Virus genome (UHGV): UHGV-0033546
DNA length: 64,000 bases
Strand: one strand, 5' to 3'
DNA from: a virus
Position 1 is the stretch's first letter, and each line of letters begins with the position of its first letter. Position numbers and translations under genes: made by a program. The notes beneath the pieces are model-generated. The model worked only from the letters and a program-made list of their open reading frames with translations, searched no databases and was not told where the DNA came from. Below, piece by piece: positions 6,851 through 61,382 of this stretch.

Positions 6851-7015
6851 TTACTCTTCTTTTTCTTTAGATTCCTCTTTTTTCTTTTTAGGAATCTGTT
6901 CAGGACCTTTATTTACTACAGCACCTGACGTTGTTCCAGTAGAGATATTTTCAGGATTACCACCTGAATCTCCAGCTACCATATCTTCTTTAATAAATTC
7001 TTTATATGTTTTCAT
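6851..7015 (-). CDS. hypothetical small protein (61.1 position) with capsid-targeting-like N-terminus
   Basis: 54 aa MKTYKEFIKEDMVAG...; ATG 1 nt after upstream stop; stop 2 nt before gene 61 ATG. Confidence 0.5.
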   Translation of the reverse strand: MKTYKEFIKEDMVAGDSGGNPENISTGTTSGAVVNKGPEQIPKKKKEESKEKEE

Positions 7016-52077: not shown

Positions 52078-52551
52078 TTATTTAAATGATTTGACGTACT
52101 GAACAGAACCTTTGCTATTCACGAAAGCGATTTTACCATTTTTGTTATACATGGTAGCAGTACGCTGATAGCCATAAGTTTGCTTACCAGATTGATAACC
52201 AACTAATGCAAAATTATCTTCGCCCATTTTATTCTGTTTAGCACGAATACGCTCATGACCGTGAGCCATAAGAACCTTAGCATCGCCAGTTGCAATGGAT
52301 CTACGAGTTTTTTCATCTTCAACTGTATTAACAAAGTCGTCAAATGAATCAAATTTAGCATGAGATTTATTATACAGTTTTCCATCTACTGCATAATTAT
52401 ATCCCTGTACATCCATCTCAACTTCTGTACCATCATCCAATACAGCAGTGATTTTTTGACCTTTTTTAAATTTCAAAAGATCAGTAAAAGATTCAGCAAT
52501 AATTTGAGAATTAATAGCTGCTTCAGTGATAAATTCTTGATATGTTTTCAT
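52078..52551 (-). CDS. internal (capsid-packaged) protein
   Basis: 157 aa; N-terminal capsid-targeting sequence MKTYQEFITEA; ip locus next to denV/e. Confidence 0.6.
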   Translation of the reverse strand: MKTYQEFITEAAINSQIIAESFTDLLKFKKGQKITAVLDDGTEVEMDVQGYNYAVDGKLYNKSHAKFDSFDDFVNTVEDEKTRRSIATGDAKVLMAHGHERIRAKQNKMGEDNFALVGYQSGKQTYGYQRTATMYNKNGKIAFVNSKGSVQYVKSFK

Positions 52552-52560
52552 GTGTTTCCT

Positions 52561-52977
52561 TTAAATGTAAATATTTTTACCGTAATACTTATACCAGTGT
52601 GGTTTCATTAAAATTTTTTCATCGAGTCGTTGTTGACTCAACTTAATAGCTGATTTGCATGGGTTATAATCATTTTTCCATTCTACTGGAATATCGCTGA
52701 TGTCAGGAACTTCAGTATCTTTTATACTGAACCCGCGTTTTAAGCATTCCGTTATAATGTCTGATTGACGCTTTCGCAAAAATTCTAACTTATCGTAAAA
52801 GAACGTAACATGACCAGAACCTAAAATAAACTCGGAAGATATTTTAAAATCTTTAACTCTCTTACCATTTGCCACATGTTTACGAACTATACCAAAAACG
52901 CGTGGCAATTCACGGTATTCTGCAATTAAATGCTGATCAGCAAGTTCAGATACTAAAGTCAAATTAATACGAGTCAT
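52561..52977 (-). CDS. denV: endonuclease V (pyrimidine dimer glycosylase)
   Basis: 138 aa near-identical to recalled T4 endo V. Confidence 0.9.
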
Positions 52978-56418: not shown

Positions 56419-56522
56419 AGTATTTCCTTAGGTTGATTAAGATTTAAAATCCGTAAAAGTAGTATTATACTCTATCATCAAGTCACAGGCTCATAATATC
56501 TCAATCATGAGCCTATGTAAAC

Positions 56523-56798
56523 TTATTTCATATTATTGAAATATTCTTCTGCGATTTCGTCGTTATCATGGTAAACTTTAGAAGACAGTTTAACATAACC
56601 TTCAGCAGTGAACATGTTAATCACAACCTTTACAGTATACCACTGACCGTCTTCATTACCCATTACTGCGTAAGTTTCAAACATCGGATGATCAGGACCG
56701 ATAACTTTAATATCATTCACTGTACGACCAAAATCTTCTGAAACGCATTTCATAAAGAAGTTAAACAGTTCGCCGTAATTATCCATTTCATTCTCCAA
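56523..56798 (-). CDS. hypothetical protein
   Basis: 91-aa acidic ORF(-). Confidence 0.5.
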   Translation of the reverse strand: MENEMDNYGELFNFFMKCVSEDFGRTVNDIKVIGPDHPMFETYAVMGNEDGQWYTVKVVINMFTAEGYVKLSSKVYHDNDEIAEEYFNNMK

Positions 56799-56829
56799 GT
56801 TGTTTTCTGTATCAGTAGTTGATAGTTGT

Positions 56830-56859
56830 ATAGTACCATGGAAGAACAGTCTTGTAAAC
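56830..56859 (-). promoter_or_regulatory. T4-type early promoter
   Basis: minus strand GTTTACA, 18 nt, TGG-TACTAT; part of 63-bp repeat shared with 13666..13728. Confidence 0.55.
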
Positions 56860-56992
56860 AGTTTTGTGAAAAAATTTTTAAAAATTTTTAGGGAATTCTA
56901 GGGCAGGGAGGGGAAATTAAAAGGTAGGATAATATATTATAAAGGGTATAAACTAAATGATGCCTAGAAAGGCCCGGAAAGGCCTAGATACC

Positions 56993-57020
56993 AAAAAGCC
57001 CCAACCTTTCGGCTGGGGCT
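56993..57020 (-). terminator. intrinsic terminator (repeat copy 1)
   Basis: AGCCCCAGCC-GAAA-GGUUGGGGCU hairpin + T5 on minus strand; near-identical copy at 57551..57579. Confidence 0.6.
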
Positions 57021-57027
57021 AAGAATG

Positions 57028-57501
57028 TTATTTGATTTGTTTAGCAGACCAAATGCGGTCTTTAATAATTTTTTGGATGTCTTCAACATACTCTAGGTCA
57101 TGAGCATGTGGATTATCTTTAAAACTATGAGCTCGCGCAAGTTTCTGGCCTTCGGTCTTAATTACCAAAAGTTCTTTAAGGATAGCTTCATATTTAGAGA
57201 TAATTCCTTTAACAATATTTTTCTCTTGTGCGGCTTTAGGATCTGCTTTAGGAGCAGGTTTACCCGAAGCCTTTGCAAAAGCAGCTCCAGTAGCAACTAG
57301 ACTTTTCCAGGCCATACTAACCGCATTTCCCGTAAATCCTTCTGCTTTCATGTCGCGAGCAAATTGGAATCGTGATTCGTCAGAAGCATCTTTATAAGAA
57401 TATTTACCCGCTGCAATGGCTGCTTTTGCAACAGCTTGAATTTCGGTGCTAGATGCTTCATTTAACACCGCTTCATTTAAAAATTGAGTATATGATTTCA
57501 T
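57028..57501 (-). CDS. internal (capsid-packaged) protein
   Basis: 157 aa; capsid-targeting-like N-terminus MKSYTQFLNEA; Ala/Lys-rich; flanked by duplicated terminators. Confidence 0.6.
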   Translation of the reverse strand: MKSYTQFLNEAVLNEASSTEIQAVAKAAIAAGKYSYKDASDESRFQFARDMKAEGFTGNAVSMAWKSLVATGAAFAKASGKPAPKADPKAAQEKNIVKGIISKYEAILKELLVIKTEGQKLARAHSFKDNPHAHDLEYVEDIQKIIKDRIWSAKQIK

Positions 57502-57541
57502 CTTATTTCCTGTTTTAATTCGTGGATTTAATATACTACTA

Positions 57542-57549
57542 TATTTATA
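57542..57549 (-). promoter_or_regulatory. late promoter TATAAATA
   Basis: exact TATAAATA on minus strand about 40 nt upstream of 57501 ATG. Confidence 0.5.
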
Positions 57550-57550
57550 C

Positions 57551-57579
57551 TAAAAAGCCCCAACCTTTCGGTCGGGGCT
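57551..57579 (-). terminator. intrinsic terminator (repeat copy 2)
   Basis: AGCCCCGACC-GAAA-GGUUGGGGCU hairpin + T5 on minus strand. Confidence 0.6.
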
Positions 57580-57885
57580 AAGCCTTGCGGCAACCTTGTC
57601 GGGGTTCCACCTGCTAAGGCAAGTGTTTGTACGAAACGCCGGGATTCGAACCCGGTTATTAAGTAGTTGACGCTACTCAATATTTTTAAAAGGCCATATC
57701 TCGACCATATCCGAACGTTCCGTCAAAAACGCTACTCGGCTTACGGTAAAGATATTTCCTCGAATCGATAATTCGGTGCGCCGTTTCAGCTGTGATAGTA
57801 AAGAACCAGAACACAGTAAAACTGTGGGAGGAACTATACTCCAGGGAACATCAGTCCGACGACTTACCGGTAGCGACCCGGTTTC

Positions 57886-58236
57886 TTAATATTCTTTTAA
57901 AGTATCAATCTGTTCACGACGTTTACGCCATAAATCAATTGCTTCATACGCAGATTCAGCATTTCGAATTAGTCGGCATTTGTGTAAAGACTTATGATTT
58001 TGATATTGTGTAGATAACGGAATTTTATCTAAAAGGTCTTTACGTTCAAAGTATTCGTAACCATCTAAGCCAAATGAACGATTTTTAAGAAATTGCCAAT
58101 GACCATATTCGTTTTCGACATAAACATAATCCGCGTGTTGATAAAGCAAATTAATTACACGTTCAGAAATAACAGTGTCATTGTGATTAAAATAAAATGT
58201 TAAATCATGAACTACTAAATAAACATTACCTTTCAT
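57886..58236 (-). CDS. hypothetical protein adjacent to tRNA cluster
   Basis: 116-aa ORF(-); no confident motif. Confidence 0.45.
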   Translation of the reverse strand: MKGNVYLVVHDLTFYFNHNDTVISERVINLLYQHADYVYVENEYGHWQFLKNRSFGLDGYEYFERKDLLDKIPLSTQYQNHKSLHKCRLIRNAESAYEAIDLWRKRREQIDTLKEY

Positions 58237-58252: not shown

Positions 58253-58328
58253 TGGTCGAGGCAGTAGGGATCGAACCTACGACCTAGGACTTAGAAGGTC
58301 CTTGCTCTTCCTTCTGAGCTATGCCCCG
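58253..58328 (-). tRNA. tRNA-Arg (anticodon TCT)
   Basis: manual cloverleaf: acceptor CGGGGCA/TGCCTCG, anticodon loop CTTCTAA, T-loop TTCGATC, CCA encoded. Confidence 0.8.
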
Positions 58329-58332
58329 TAAT

Positions 58333-58408
58333 TGGGGTGACCGATGGGAGTCGAACCCATGACTACGAGAATCACAATCTCGAGTTCTACCAACTGAACT
58401 ACGGCCAC
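58333..58408 (-). tRNA. tRNA-His (anticodon GTG)
   Basis: manual cloverleaf: anticodon loop TTGTGAT, T-arm ATGGG-TTCGACT-CCCAT, discriminator C, CCA encoded. Confidence 0.7.
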
Positions 58409-58522
58409 ATTAATACCTACTCCAACAATCAAGATGTCTTCACACGAAATTAAGAGAAGAATGATCAGTTCAACCCTTATAATCGCGTCAAGTAGATATT
58501 AATGTGACAGTTGTCACAAATT

Positions 58523-58597
58523 TGGCGGACATGCATGGATTCGAACCATGGACCAATTGATTAACAGTCAACTGCTCTACCACTGAGCTACACATCC
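58523..58597 (-). tRNA. tRNA-Asn (anticodon GTT)
   Basis: manual cloverleaf: D-stem GCTC/GAGC, anticodon loop CTGTTAA, T-loop TTCGAAT, CCA encoded. Confidence 0.7.
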
Positions 58598-58601
58598 AAA
58601 T

Positions 58602-58688
58602 TGGTGGGGAGTGATGGAGTCGAACCACCCGAGTCGCAATGACAATGGATTTACAGTCCACACCGCTACCTCTACGGGATAACTCCCC
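58602..58688 (-). tRNA. tRNA-Tyr (anticodon GTA), type II
   Basis: 87 nt; perfect acceptor GGGGAGT/ACTCCCC, anticodon loop CTGTAAA, long variable arm; D-arm pairing imperfect. Confidence 0.6.
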
Positions 58689-58701
58689 CTAATTCATAAT
58701 T

Positions 58702-58776
58702 TGGTGGCCCTGGGTGGAATTGAACCACCATCTGGCGATTATGAGTCGCTTGCTTGAACCTTCCAGCTACAGGGCC
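58702..58776 (-). tRNA. tRNA with anticodon CAT (Ile2-lysidine type or Met)
   Basis: acceptor GGCCCTG/CAGGGCC, anticodon loop CTCATAA, T-arm GGTGG-TTCAATT-CCACC, CCA encoded. Confidence 0.65.
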
Positions 58777-58777
58777 T

Positions 58778-58853
58778 TGGTGCTGATTGACGGAATCGAA
58801 CCGCCGACATCCTCATTACAAGTGAGGTGCTCTACCTACTGAGCTAAATCAGC
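58778..58853 (-). tRNA. tRNA-Thr (anticodon TGT)
   Basis: acceptor GCTGATT/AATCAGC, anticodon loop CTTGTAA, CCA encoded. Confidence 0.8.
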
Positions 58854-58858
58854 AAAAC

Positions 58859-58948
58859 TGGCGGAGGCGATAGGATTTGAACCTATGAGTCGCCGGAGCG
58901 ACTGCCGGTTTTCAAGACCGGTGCATTAAACCACTCTGCCACGCCTCC
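58859..58948 (-). tRNA. tRNA-Ser (anticodon TGA), type II
   Basis: 90 nt; anticodon stem CCGGT/ACCGG, loop CTTGAAA, long variable arm, CCA encoded. Confidence 0.8.
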
Positions 58949-58950
58949 AG

Positions 58951-59024
58951 TCTCCATACAAGGATTTGAACCTTGGACCTCCTGATCCCAAATCAGGCGC
59001 TCTACCAAACTGAGCTACACGGAG
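58951..59024 (-). tRNA. tRNA-Pro (anticodon TGG), CCA not encoded
   Basis: anticodon loop TTTGGGA, T-arm CAAGG-TTCAAAT-CCTTG; 2 nt from tRNA-Ser (dimeric precursor as in T4). Confidence 0.8.
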
Positions 59025-59034
59025 TAAATTAAAT

Positions 59035-59108
<74 letters not shown>

Positions 59109-59113
59109 AAATT

Positions 59114-59200
59114 TGGTGCGAGAAGTGGGACTCGAACCCACAAGGAAATCATTCCGCAGCATTTTAAGTGCTGTGCCTTTACCAATTTGACCATTCTCGC
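59114..59200 (-). tRNA. tRNA-Leu (anticodon TAA), type II
   Basis: 87 nt; anticodon stem CAGCA/TGCTG, loop CTTAAAA, long variable arm, CCA encoded. Confidence 0.8.
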
Positions 59201-59201
59201 G

Positions 59202-59274
59202 CTGGGAATAAAGGACTCGAACCTTTGCATCCTGGAATCAAAATCCAGTGCCTTACCAACTTGGCTAATTCCCA
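59202..59274 (-). tRNA. tRNA-Gln (anticodon TTG), CCA not encoded
   Basis: acceptor TGGGAAT/ATTCCCA, anticodon loop TTTTGAT; 1 nt from tRNA-Leu (dimeric precursor). Confidence 0.8.
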
Positions 59275-59371: not shown

Positions 59372-59665
59372 TTACCATTTATGATAATACATATTTACGA
59401 TGCATTCAAGACCCAAAGGATTCTTGAAAATATCATATTCAAGAGGACCTTTTTCTGTTTCAATAAAGAAATCAAAATTTACTGTATTAAATTTACGATC
59501 TTCCTTCACTAATTTAACTTGAGAAGATGAACGGTCAATGTAAACCTTTTCAACTTCAAAATATGTTAAAATGCCATAATCATCAATCAAGGCTTTAGCT
59601 GCTTCTTGATCATATTTATATCCATTTTCAATGGATGATACTTTCGCATAAAGAATCATTATCAA
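59372..59665 (-). CDS. hypothetical protein
   Basis: 97-aa ORF(-). Confidence 0.45.
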   Translation of the reverse strand: MIMILYAKVSSIENGYKYDQEAAKALIDDYGILTYFEVEKVYIDRSSSQVKLVKEDRKFNTVNFDFFIETEKGPLEYDIFKNPLGLECIVNMYYHKW

Positions 59666-60063
59666 CCTTCATCAACAATAGTGTGCGTATTGGCATTTAC
59701 AATTTGCCACCAATCAAAGCGATTAGAACCACACATCGCTTTGTTTTCATTTTCTTTGATAATGTCACGAAGTTCATCTTCAGTGGAGGCTTTCGCGATT
59801 AAATCAGTATACCCACCACGTGGATAATAATTATCACCTGCAAACAAAAGGAAATTTACCTTCCCGGAAGGAACATATGCTTCCTTAGGATACTTGTTTC
59901 CTGCGTGGTCAACCACTTCAATATAACGGTAAGGAATATCGGTTCTTTCAACCCATTGCCATGCCGCTGCAGGGGAATCGAAAGCATCTACACCTAAACG
60001 ATTATCTTCATCTTTAGATGGATTATTTTCGTAATCCGCATATACATAGTATTCAACGTTCAT
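59662..60063 (-). CDS. hypothetical protein
   Basis: 133-aa ORF(-), coupled. Confidence 0.5.
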   Translation of the reverse strand: MNVEYYVYADYENNPSKDEDNRLGVDAFDSPAAAWQWVERTDIPYRYIEVVDHAGNKYPKEAYVPSGKVNFLLFAGDNYYPRGGYTDLIAKASTEDELRDIIKENENKAMCGSNRFDWWQIVNANTHTIVDEG

Positions 60064-60248: not shown

Positions 60249-60276
60249 TTTATTCTCCTCAGTAGTTGATAGGGTA

Positions 60277-60306
60277 ATAGTATCACTACTAAAACCCTAT
60301 GTAAAC
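60277..60306 (-). promoter_or_regulatory. T4-type early promoter
   Basis: minus strand GTTTAC, 18 nt, TACTAT. Confidence 0.5.
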
Positions 60307-60325
60307 AACTTTGTGAAATTGTTTA

Positions 60326-60613
60326 TTACAAAAGATTTTTAGCAATAATCTTGAGATGTGCTGCAGAAATGTGTTTAGCTTTAAACAACGCAGTTTCTTC
60401 AGCAGGAGAGATAACGATTGTAGCACCATCCTTTTTAGCAGACCACCCATCACCTAGGTAAACAGTACCTTTGATTTCTTCGCCATCAACCAGACTAATC
60501 ATTGGTTTACCTTCTCGTCCTTTATTTGCTTTAATAACTTCAGAAGTAAGAGTAGCCTCGGTAATGGTAGAAACCGGGGTAGTTGTAGAAGTAAATTCTT
60601 TGAAAGTTTTCAT
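60326..60613 (-). CDS. internal protein I-like (capsid-packaged)
   Basis: 95 aa; capsid-targeting-like N-terminus MKTFKEFTS; position upstream of 57B/57A as T4 ipI. Confidence 0.55.
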   Translation of the reverse strand: MKTFKEFTSTTTPVSTITEATLTSEVIKANKGREGKPMISLVDGEEIKGTVYLGDGWSAKKDGATIVISPAEETALFKAKHISAAHLKIIAKNLL

Positions 60614-60643
60614 TTTATTTTCCTAATTAATTTTGATGAGATA

Positions 60644-60673
60644 ATAGTATCACTACCTCATCAGCGTGTAAAC
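60644..60673 (-). promoter_or_regulatory. T4-type early promoter
   Basis: minus strand GTTTAC, 18 nt, TACTAT. Confidence 0.5.
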
Positions 60674-60685
60674 AACTTTGTGAAA

Positions 60686-61382
<697 letters not shown>

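Follow-up and report, generated by a model that had tools for sequence, protein, structure and literature searches.

Why should a single small gene of a T4-like phage lie between two almost identical transcription terminators, and does this arrangement make it an exchangeable unit? The question is raised by a 157-aa gene on the minus strand of the virus genome UHGV-0033546, at 57028..57501 of a stretch of 64,000 nucleotides that was analysed as a whole (hereafter, the window). The sequence harbouring the gene is a segment of a T4-like (Tequatrovirus) genome. A first, sequence-only reading of the window had proposed that the gene encodes an internal protein (IP), with an N-terminus resembling a capsid-targeting sequence (CTS), and that the repeated terminators could allow cassette exchange. 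The proposal of exchange is supported by comparison with related phages, in which genes are gained, lost and reordered between copies of the same terminator: the cassette is lost, doubled, replaced or reordered, and the boundaries of these changes lie exactly at the terminator copies. From these comparisons and by analogy with the internal proteins of T4, we consider it probable that the locus is a self-contained late-gene cassette with shielded late transcription, a packaged anti-defence protein as its product and turnover at the repeats.

The two flanking elements were initially described as 28-nt terminators. They indeed form a near-identical pair, but the core of the upstream copy begins at 57552 rather than 57551, and the repeat is really 36 nt long, with 33 of 36 positions identical in the alignment and the copies 559 nt apart. 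It is the sole direct-repeat family reported by the repeat finder in 56500-58100, and no third copy was detected in the 64-kb window with up to 6 substitutions allowed. Both copies are strong intrinsic-terminator hairpins of the minus strand. A terminator scan of 12 kb gives them the top two places, both on this strand; each combines a T-run with a 4-nt loop and 10 stem pairs, of which 7 are G-C, and the minus-strand RNA folds in both cases into an unbroken 10-bp stem with a GAAA loop followed by U5. The transcribed strand of both copies thus carries a GC-rich hairpin directly before a U-run, as is characteristic of intrinsic terminators. The downstream copy folds at -20.8 kcal/mol (z -3.9) and the upstream copy at -20.3 kcal/mol (z -3.6), none of 200 shuffles being as stable in either case; the plus-strand fold has an internal mismatch and reaches only about -16 kcal/mol. 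What had been taken for one mismatch in the stem is a pair of adjacent substitutions, AGCC versus GACC on the transcribed strand, each paired with UU. This AG/GA change swaps A-U and G-U pairs and leaves all 10 pairs intact on the minus strand only, which supports a terminator function at the RNA level.

Terminators are annotated at these same sites in the D5505 record, and the upstream hairpin is identical to the lone terminator downstream of rnaC in T4. The upstream core is predicted to end the tRNA/rnaD/rnaC transcription unit, and the downstream core begins 7 nt past the stop codon of the 157-aa gene. The open reading frame (ORF) itself is as first stated: it opens with MKSYTQFLNEAVLNEA and its first residues are MKSYTQFLNEA. 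The late promoter attributed to it was also recovered, as the octamer TATAAATA, the T4 late-promoter consensus. The octamer starts 3 nt past the U-run of the upstream copy and 40 nt before the ATG, and all occupied Tequatrovirus loci that were examined have it at this offset; on the basis of this motif it is a candidate promoter. The cassette would thus consist, in this order, of a terminator, the late promoter, a ribosome-binding site, the 157-aa gene and the second terminator copy, located immediately behind the terminator of the tRNA/rnaD/rnaC operon. In the mechanism that we propose, the upstream copy would keep early and middle read-through out of the gene, whose transcription would be late only and driven by its own promoter, and the downstream copy would halt late transcripts ahead of e.8, a gene itself served by a sigma-70-like promoter.

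If the terminators delimit an exchangeable unit, relatives should differ between them. The rnaC-to-e.8 interval was parsed in 23 related loci and the result was complemented with BLAST summaries; this is a survey of these loci rather than a full census, to which IMG/VR contributed 10 loci with an e.8 anchor. A classification based on the span of the locus was dropped, since the neighbouring e.7 slot varies among relatives too and so distorts the lengths. In the following formulae T is the terminator, P is TATAAATA, Tg is a genus-specific variant of T, and T', T'' and T2 (here not the phage) are unrelated hairpins. The interval is empty, with a single T, in T4, T2 and G2133. The state of the window, T-P-ip157-T, is shared with EC121, RB32, AR1, EPIMRB01 and one IMG/VR contig, and also with SfPhi01, in which the gene is shortened to 111 aa. 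RB27 and one contig carry a diverged allele (MKTYAQFLMTEASAS...) in the same frame, T-P-ip153-T. A second gene is present in D5505, PYps32T and two contigs, T-P-ip157-T-(AATAAATA)-ip187-T', while L011 has ip154 with ip187 and L012 has ip154 alone. In Dhakavirus-like genomes the locus reads Tg-P-ip154/157-T2-ORF184-Tg (WG01, L014, L016) or, with the order swapped, Tg-P-ORF184-Tg-P-ip205-T'' (L013, L017); in the swapped state the CTS-bearing gene has a near-identical leader, MKTYNEFLNESVLNEA, and a different mature protein. The locus is therefore not invariant, and copies of the same terminator enclose a diverged allele of 153 aa, another member of the family of 205 aa, a second tandem gene of 187 aa and a swapped gene order. 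At all cassette borders examined the terminator is usually accompanied by the late promoter. The exchange is visible at the rnaC-e.8 locus only, not between loci.

A 151-nt query across the T4 empty junction found matches in 580 records of the phage collection; the junction was uninterrupted in 11 of 45 evenly spaced sample rows, about a quarter, and split by an insert in the others. According to tblastn, ip157-like genes are present in 512 phage records and ip187 in 165. In T4 no gene lies between rnaC and e.8 and the element is present only once; the interval reads rnaC...AGCCCCGACCGAAAGGTTGGGGCTTTTTGGTATCTAAGCC, in which the hairpin of the window's upstream copy directly precedes the sequence found in the window behind the downstream copy. 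The empty sites of T2 and G2133 are the same, and this sequence is exactly what is expected from a crossover at any point of the 36-nt repeat. Cassettes may be deleted or added by recombination or template switching between direct copies of the terminator.

The terminator copies themselves carry signs of exchange. The AG and GA stem variants occur in all combinations among the phages: GA upstream with AG downstream in the window, the opposite in contig L008, GA in both copies of AR1 and AG in both of RB27. In Dhakavirus-like genomes both copies are the genus-specific variant AGGCCCTTCCGAAAGGTTGGGCC, about five positions away from the Tequatrovirus version, and differ by 0-1 positions within one genome. 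Copies within a genome are thus closer to each other than orthologues are, which points to concerted evolution or to repeated regeneration of the duplication. In the indel that distinguishes the window from D5505 with respect to ip187, the junction lies inside GGGCTTTTT, a sequence common to two otherwise different terminators. This fits the T4 deletions studied by Mosig, about half of which are described as involving the motif GGGC, in some cases together with its inverted repeat GCCC (PMC2839356).

Part of this pattern could have arisen in another way. The two hairpins may merely be terminators, duplicated as a passive by-product of one ancient insertion beside the rnaC terminator, with the polymorphism spread by exchange of the flanks, possibly through co-conversion of the tRNA region by SegB. 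We regard this explanation as unlikely, although it can draw on flanks that are 90-97% identical across kilobases in hundreds of phages, on the presence of only two copies of the element per genome, not dispersed as the early-promoter/stem-loop elements known as PeSLs are, and on segB, which in T4 and RB32 is no more than about 1 kb away and whose product drives homing of the tRNA region. Exchange of flanks does not account for an empty allele that arose at least once with the exact sequence of a repeat-to-repeat crossover product, nor for cassettes in permuted order with the element at every joint, nor for the ip187 junction inside a sequence common to two different terminators. Moreover, the co-variation of within-genome copies between genera and the assortment of AG and GA in all combinations require exchange between the copies.

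The first 10 residues of IPIII are described as sufficient for packaging, residues 4 and 7 as the main determinants of targeting by the CTS, and residues 8 and 10 as those of processing, with cleavage by the gp21 protease after L/I-X-E (PMC9026906). In MKSYTQFLNE, followed by A11, all four mapped determinants are present (Y4, F7, L8 and E10), which bears out the capsid-targeting likeness proposed for this N-terminus; Y4 and F7 are identical to those of T4 IPII and IPIII (MKTYQEFIAE, then A). The gp21 motif is found at L8-N9-E10 before A11, and a second site at L13-N14-E15 before A16. The leader is the most conserved part of the phrog_2280 family to which the protein belongs, and the motif x-x-[FY]-x-[EDQ]-F-[LV]-x-E-[AG] is kept in the most distant relatives, whose mature parts are at most 30% identical. 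That it survives the loss of similarity at the DNA level is an argument for selection acting on the peptide. As in internal proteins, the leader is conserved while the mature part diverges, and the gene is dispensable and differs among close relatives: T4, T2 and G2133 lack it, SfPhi01 has a truncated copy, and alternative alleles occur elsewhere. The 157-aa protein thus has each sequence-level character of an internal protein except location, and its packaging is predicted. The 10-15-residue leader would direct the protein to the prohead core, where gp21 would trim it after L-N-E; late-only expression would suit co-assembly into this core. The predicted mature protein is basic (isoelectric point about 9.4-9.5), of about 15.5-16 kDa; it would be injected with the DNA and, by analogy with Ip1-3, would probably counteract a defence of the host, for example a type IV restriction enzyme of the GmrSD type.

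It is also conceivable, if quite improbable, that the cassette is real and its product is a late cytoplasmic or assembly-associated protein that is not packaged, the likeness to a CTS stemming from 5' gene ends, with their promoter, ribosome-binding site and initial codons, that these loci share through recombination. The 5' region of the gene does share a 42-nt, 74%-identical stretch with the neighbouring ip187, a possible recombination relic, and ORF184, a DUF7338/phrog_2143 protein without CTS, membrane-like and with a hydrophobic N-terminus, is flanked by the same terminator and late promoter. With its position between rnaC and e.8, the gene belongs to neither of the two known IP loci, and none of the listed tblastn matches of the 512 records carries an Ip annotation, all being called 'hypothetical protein'. 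On the other side stand the joint presence of the four mapped CTS positions and of an L/I-X-E site before A, the leader kept in the most divergent members despite dissimilar DNA, and the predicted late-only expression, which would fit a prohead component. As for a chance or convergent resemblance of two unrelated hairpins, it is effectively refuted: a GC-rich stem, a GNRA loop and a T-run are generic terminator features, but the 33/36 identity extends beyond the hairpin to CTTAG on the 5' side and GTAT on the 3' side, the computed expectation for such a 28-mer pair within 1.6 kb is about 6e-8, and the pair is conserved in every occupied locus examined.

Besides the location and the annotation of the gene, several other points weigh against the proposal of a repeat-driven cassette for a packaged anti-defence protein. 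The 157-aa protein has no Pfam family, no PADLOC match and no sequence-profile match in the PDB. A Foldseek search of the PDB with its AlphaFold2 model returned nothing below E = 1, and in BFVD the only matches with E below 1e-3 were two near-identical (97-99%) proteins of phages, both uncharacterised. Truncated or interrupted copies in several genomes indicate that the gene is readily lost or pseudogenised. Since family members occupy the rnaC-e.8 position in Tequatrovirus, Dhakavirus and Jiaodavirus (the last with a homologue of the N-domain), presence is probably ancestral and the empty state of T4 and T2 probably a deletion, a direction given by parsimony only. Finally, exchange through the long conserved flanks, rnaC and e.8, at co-infection could yield much of the polymorphism without the repeats. 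Concerning location, we note that position in a known IP locus is a descriptive rather than a mechanistic criterion; ipI is 3 kb from the gene and the other IP locus of the window lies near denV, at 52078-52551.

The family of the 157-aa protein is tiny and restricted to phages, with 13 clusters in a set of 5.8 billion proteins and 13 representatives among 1.84 billion proteins in an all-against-library profile search. The AlphaFold2 model (pLDDT, the per-residue confidence score, 74) is all-helical, with a low-confidence leader helix, a four-helix N-domain (residues ~17-75, pLDDT 80-91), a Pro/Ala/Lys linker and a C-terminal helical hairpin; C-terminal domains are swapped among family members. 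The similarity between ip157 and ip187 was not significant in pairwise BLASTP. A view of the two as unrelated was rejected, as they are joined via ip205, which is 27% identical to ip157 (E = 1e-7) and 28% identical to ip187 (E = 1e-5), and via phrog_2280, which ip157, ip153, ip187 and ip205 all match with E = 1e-52 to 1e-60. The link through ip205 indicates that the tandem genes of D5505 are distant paralogues. A text search of the literature, including the name RB32ORF133c, found no paper naming the 157-aa protein, and its leader is not among the tested ip4-10 in a leader-sequence search of the supplements of Silas 2025 (PMC12373910).

The arrangement can be compared with several known systems, of which the IP loci of T4-like phages are the closest. 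Repoila et al. 1994, as reported in PMC2839356, PMC4122927 and PMC3012670, found strong polymorphism at two IP loci, where leaders are conserved and regulatory motifs recur at the ORF borders, and suggested shuffling. Two Ip loci are likewise recognised in PMC12373910. As in these loci, the genes at rnaC-e.8 are small and non-essential, with a conserved CTS leader and fast-diverging or unrelated mature parts; close relatives differ in how many of these genes they have, in which ones and in what order; and each gene is bracketed by a repeated regulatory motif, the proposed vehicle of shuffling. The site differs in being neither the ipI nor the ipII/ipIII locus, in its GC-rich intrinsic terminator and late promoter in place of an AT-rich promoter/stem-loop TTTCACAAAGTTGTTTACA...GATACTAT, and in its alleles, which all belong to one divergent family, phrog_2280, and are not unrelated. 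The ~60-70-nt promoter/stem-loop element of ipI, ipII and ipIII showed no similarity to the terminator repeat, which is thus not of the type described by Repoila. The direct repeat itself had been noticed before: the RB32 GenBank record states of the orthologue RB32ORF133c that it is 'flanked by 34 bp imperfect direct repeat'.

The idea of shuffling was widened to PeSLs, in which an early promoter is combined with a stem-loop, by Arbiol 2010 (PMC2839356) and Comeau 2014 (PMC4122927). Like a PeSL, the element described here is a composite of a stem-loop terminator and a promoter at the borders of accessory genes; one element is found at the empty site of relatives without the gene (T4, T2 and G2133, compared with the window, RB32 and AR1); and recombination between flanking elements is proposed to remove or insert a gene together with its own regulation. 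Its predicted stem-loop is terminator-capable. Unlike PeSLs, it has the late TATAAATA and not a sigma-70-like early promoter, the promoter scan giving no sigma-70-like match that overlaps either repeat; its stem-loop comes before the promoter; and two or three copies at one locus (two in the 64 kb of the window) replace a dispersed family. The element therefore falls outside the definition of a PeSL, lacking a sigma-70 promoter and dispersal, yet it would appear to work like one.

Ip1, Ip2 and Ip3 of T4 are described as each inhibiting a distinct GmrSD type IV restriction enzyme (PMC12373910), and T4 internal proteins are presented as GmrSD inhibitors in PMC3012670 as well. The 157-aa protein shares with them a leader with Y/F4, F7, I/L8 and E10 followed by A, its small size, and its dispensability and variability between phages, but its mature part resembles neither IPI (PF11634) nor phrog_3155/4363 in sequence or fold. 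A further parallel is offered by the morons of lambdoid phages (PMC2839356): here too a lone accessory gene with its own promoter and terminator is inserted between genes that are adjacent in a relative. The differences are that the flanking regulatory sequences are duplicated, as the apparent vehicle of gain and loss, and that the gene is co-oriented with its neighbours.

The coordinates of the cassette and its surroundings are collected in Table 1. On the minus strand the order is ipI, trna.2-4-like ORFs, eleven tRNAs, a 116-aa ORF, rnaD, rnaC, the 157-aa gene, e.8 and e.6. The GC content of the 157-aa gene, overall and at third codon positions (GC3), is typical for the phage genome. A search of Rfam matched no family to rnaC/rnaD or to either hairpin.

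Table 1. Features of the cassette and of its neighbourhood in the window
Feature	Position	Strand	Basis
Internal-protein-like coding sequence, 157 aa, phrog_2280	57028..57501	-	ORF list, profile match
Leader-coding segment, residues 1-15 (MKSYTQFLNEAVLNE)	57457..57501	-	CTS-like propeptide, two L-N-E sites followed by A
Shine-Dalgarno-like AGGAAA, end 4 nt 5' of ATG	57506..57511	-	by sequence inspection
T4-type late promoter motif TATAAATA	57542..57549	-	motif search
Upstream copy of 36-nt repeat; terminator core 57552-57579	57547..57582	-	repeat finder, terminator scan, RNA fold
Downstream copy of 36-nt repeat; terminator core 56993-57020	56988..57023	-	repeat finder, terminator scan, RNA fold
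rnaC and rnaD homologues (T4 stable RNAs), ends approximate, upstream of cassette	57630..57884	-	near-identity to annotated T4, by eye
e.8, gene downstream of cassette	56523..56858	-	ORF list, T4 comparison
Sigma-70-like promoter match of e.8	56830-56858	-	promoter scan
ipI	60326-60613	-	Pfam IPI_T4, E = 7e-54
Eleven tRNA genes	58253-59274	-	window sequence

Several further observations concern the same region. The window has 11 tRNAs compared with 8 in T4, is without segB, and carries the 116-aa ORF, a member of phrog_3355, at 57886-58236 (-) between the rnaD-like RNA and tRNA-Arg. The e.7 slot between e.6 and e.8 (56419-56522) is empty in the window and polymorphic in relatives: it is occupied by e.7 in T4, RB27 and AR1, by a 58-aa ORF in T2, and by an ORF of ~172-176 aa in G2133, EPIMRB01 and RB32, the record of the last stating that it 'replaces e.7'. 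In G2133 (L022) a 94-nt 'tRNA-Lys(ttt)' is annotated in the public record at 1797-1890, where rnaC is expected; it is probably the call of a tRNA finder on a tRNA-like stable RNA.

Damaged copies of the 157-aa gene include the 111-aa version of SfPhi01 (L021, 1363-1698), a copy with an in-frame stop in KpV477 (L007, 2341-2731), and the proteins P0014, P0016 and P0021, which are gene fragments of 57-108 aa. P0013, a 94-aa protein from a 2.9-kb public contig, fuses a Trna.3-like N-terminal part to the last ~32 residues of ip157, parts that correspond to 59662-60063 and 57028-57123 of the window; the chimera points to a natural deletion of the whole tRNA/rnaD/rnaC block and most of the cassette. 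ORF184 was located in the Dhakavirus-like L013 (2645-3199) and L006 (3010-3564), bracketed by the same terminator and late promoter, and precedes the ip gene in some genomes and follows it in others.

Other IP-like genes were also noted in the window. The ipI gene is bracketed by a 59-nt direct repeat with 80% identity (60266-60324 and 60633-60691), of the early-promoter/stem-loop type TTTCACAAAGTTGTTTACA...GTGATACTATTA that also flanks T4 ipI, and the window thus carries two different kinds of repeat-bracketed ip cassette. A second 157-aa ORF at 52078-52551 (-), MKTYQEFITEAAINS..., matches phrog_3155 'internal virion protein' (E = 1e-101) and comes after denV (52561-52977). With the order e, denV, ip, as opposed to e, ipIII, ipII, denV in T4, the classical ipII/ipIII locus is rearranged and holds a different ip. 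Far from any ip locus, a 54-aa ORF at 6851-7015 (-) that matches phrog_1823 (unknown function) opens with the CTS-like leader MKTYKEFIKED, in which D replaces A/G after E.

The principle of shuffling has been known since 1994 (Repoila) and 2010 (PeSLs, Arbiol), and the concept is unchanged by our analysis. The novelty is a modest one and consists in another IP-like locus, the third, whose joint combines a terminator with a late promoter. The site would represent a third, previously unlabelled internal-protein-like hyperplastic locus. Tentatively, and as a possibility short of probable, we propose that rnaC-e.8 is a third IP locus in the full sense, where a modular, fast-evolving family of injected anti-defence proteins, phrog_2280, is turned over via a joint of terminator and late promoter, a late counterpart of PeSLs. 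Such a locus, whose family comprises at least four alleles with a CTS and occurs in hundreds of sequenced coliphages, would offer new candidates for injected anti-defence proteins and could help to account for differences in host range among therapeutic T4-like phages. The natural series of zero, one or two cassettes, swapped order and pseudogenes may also be used to measure repeat-driven gene shuffling in virulent phages.

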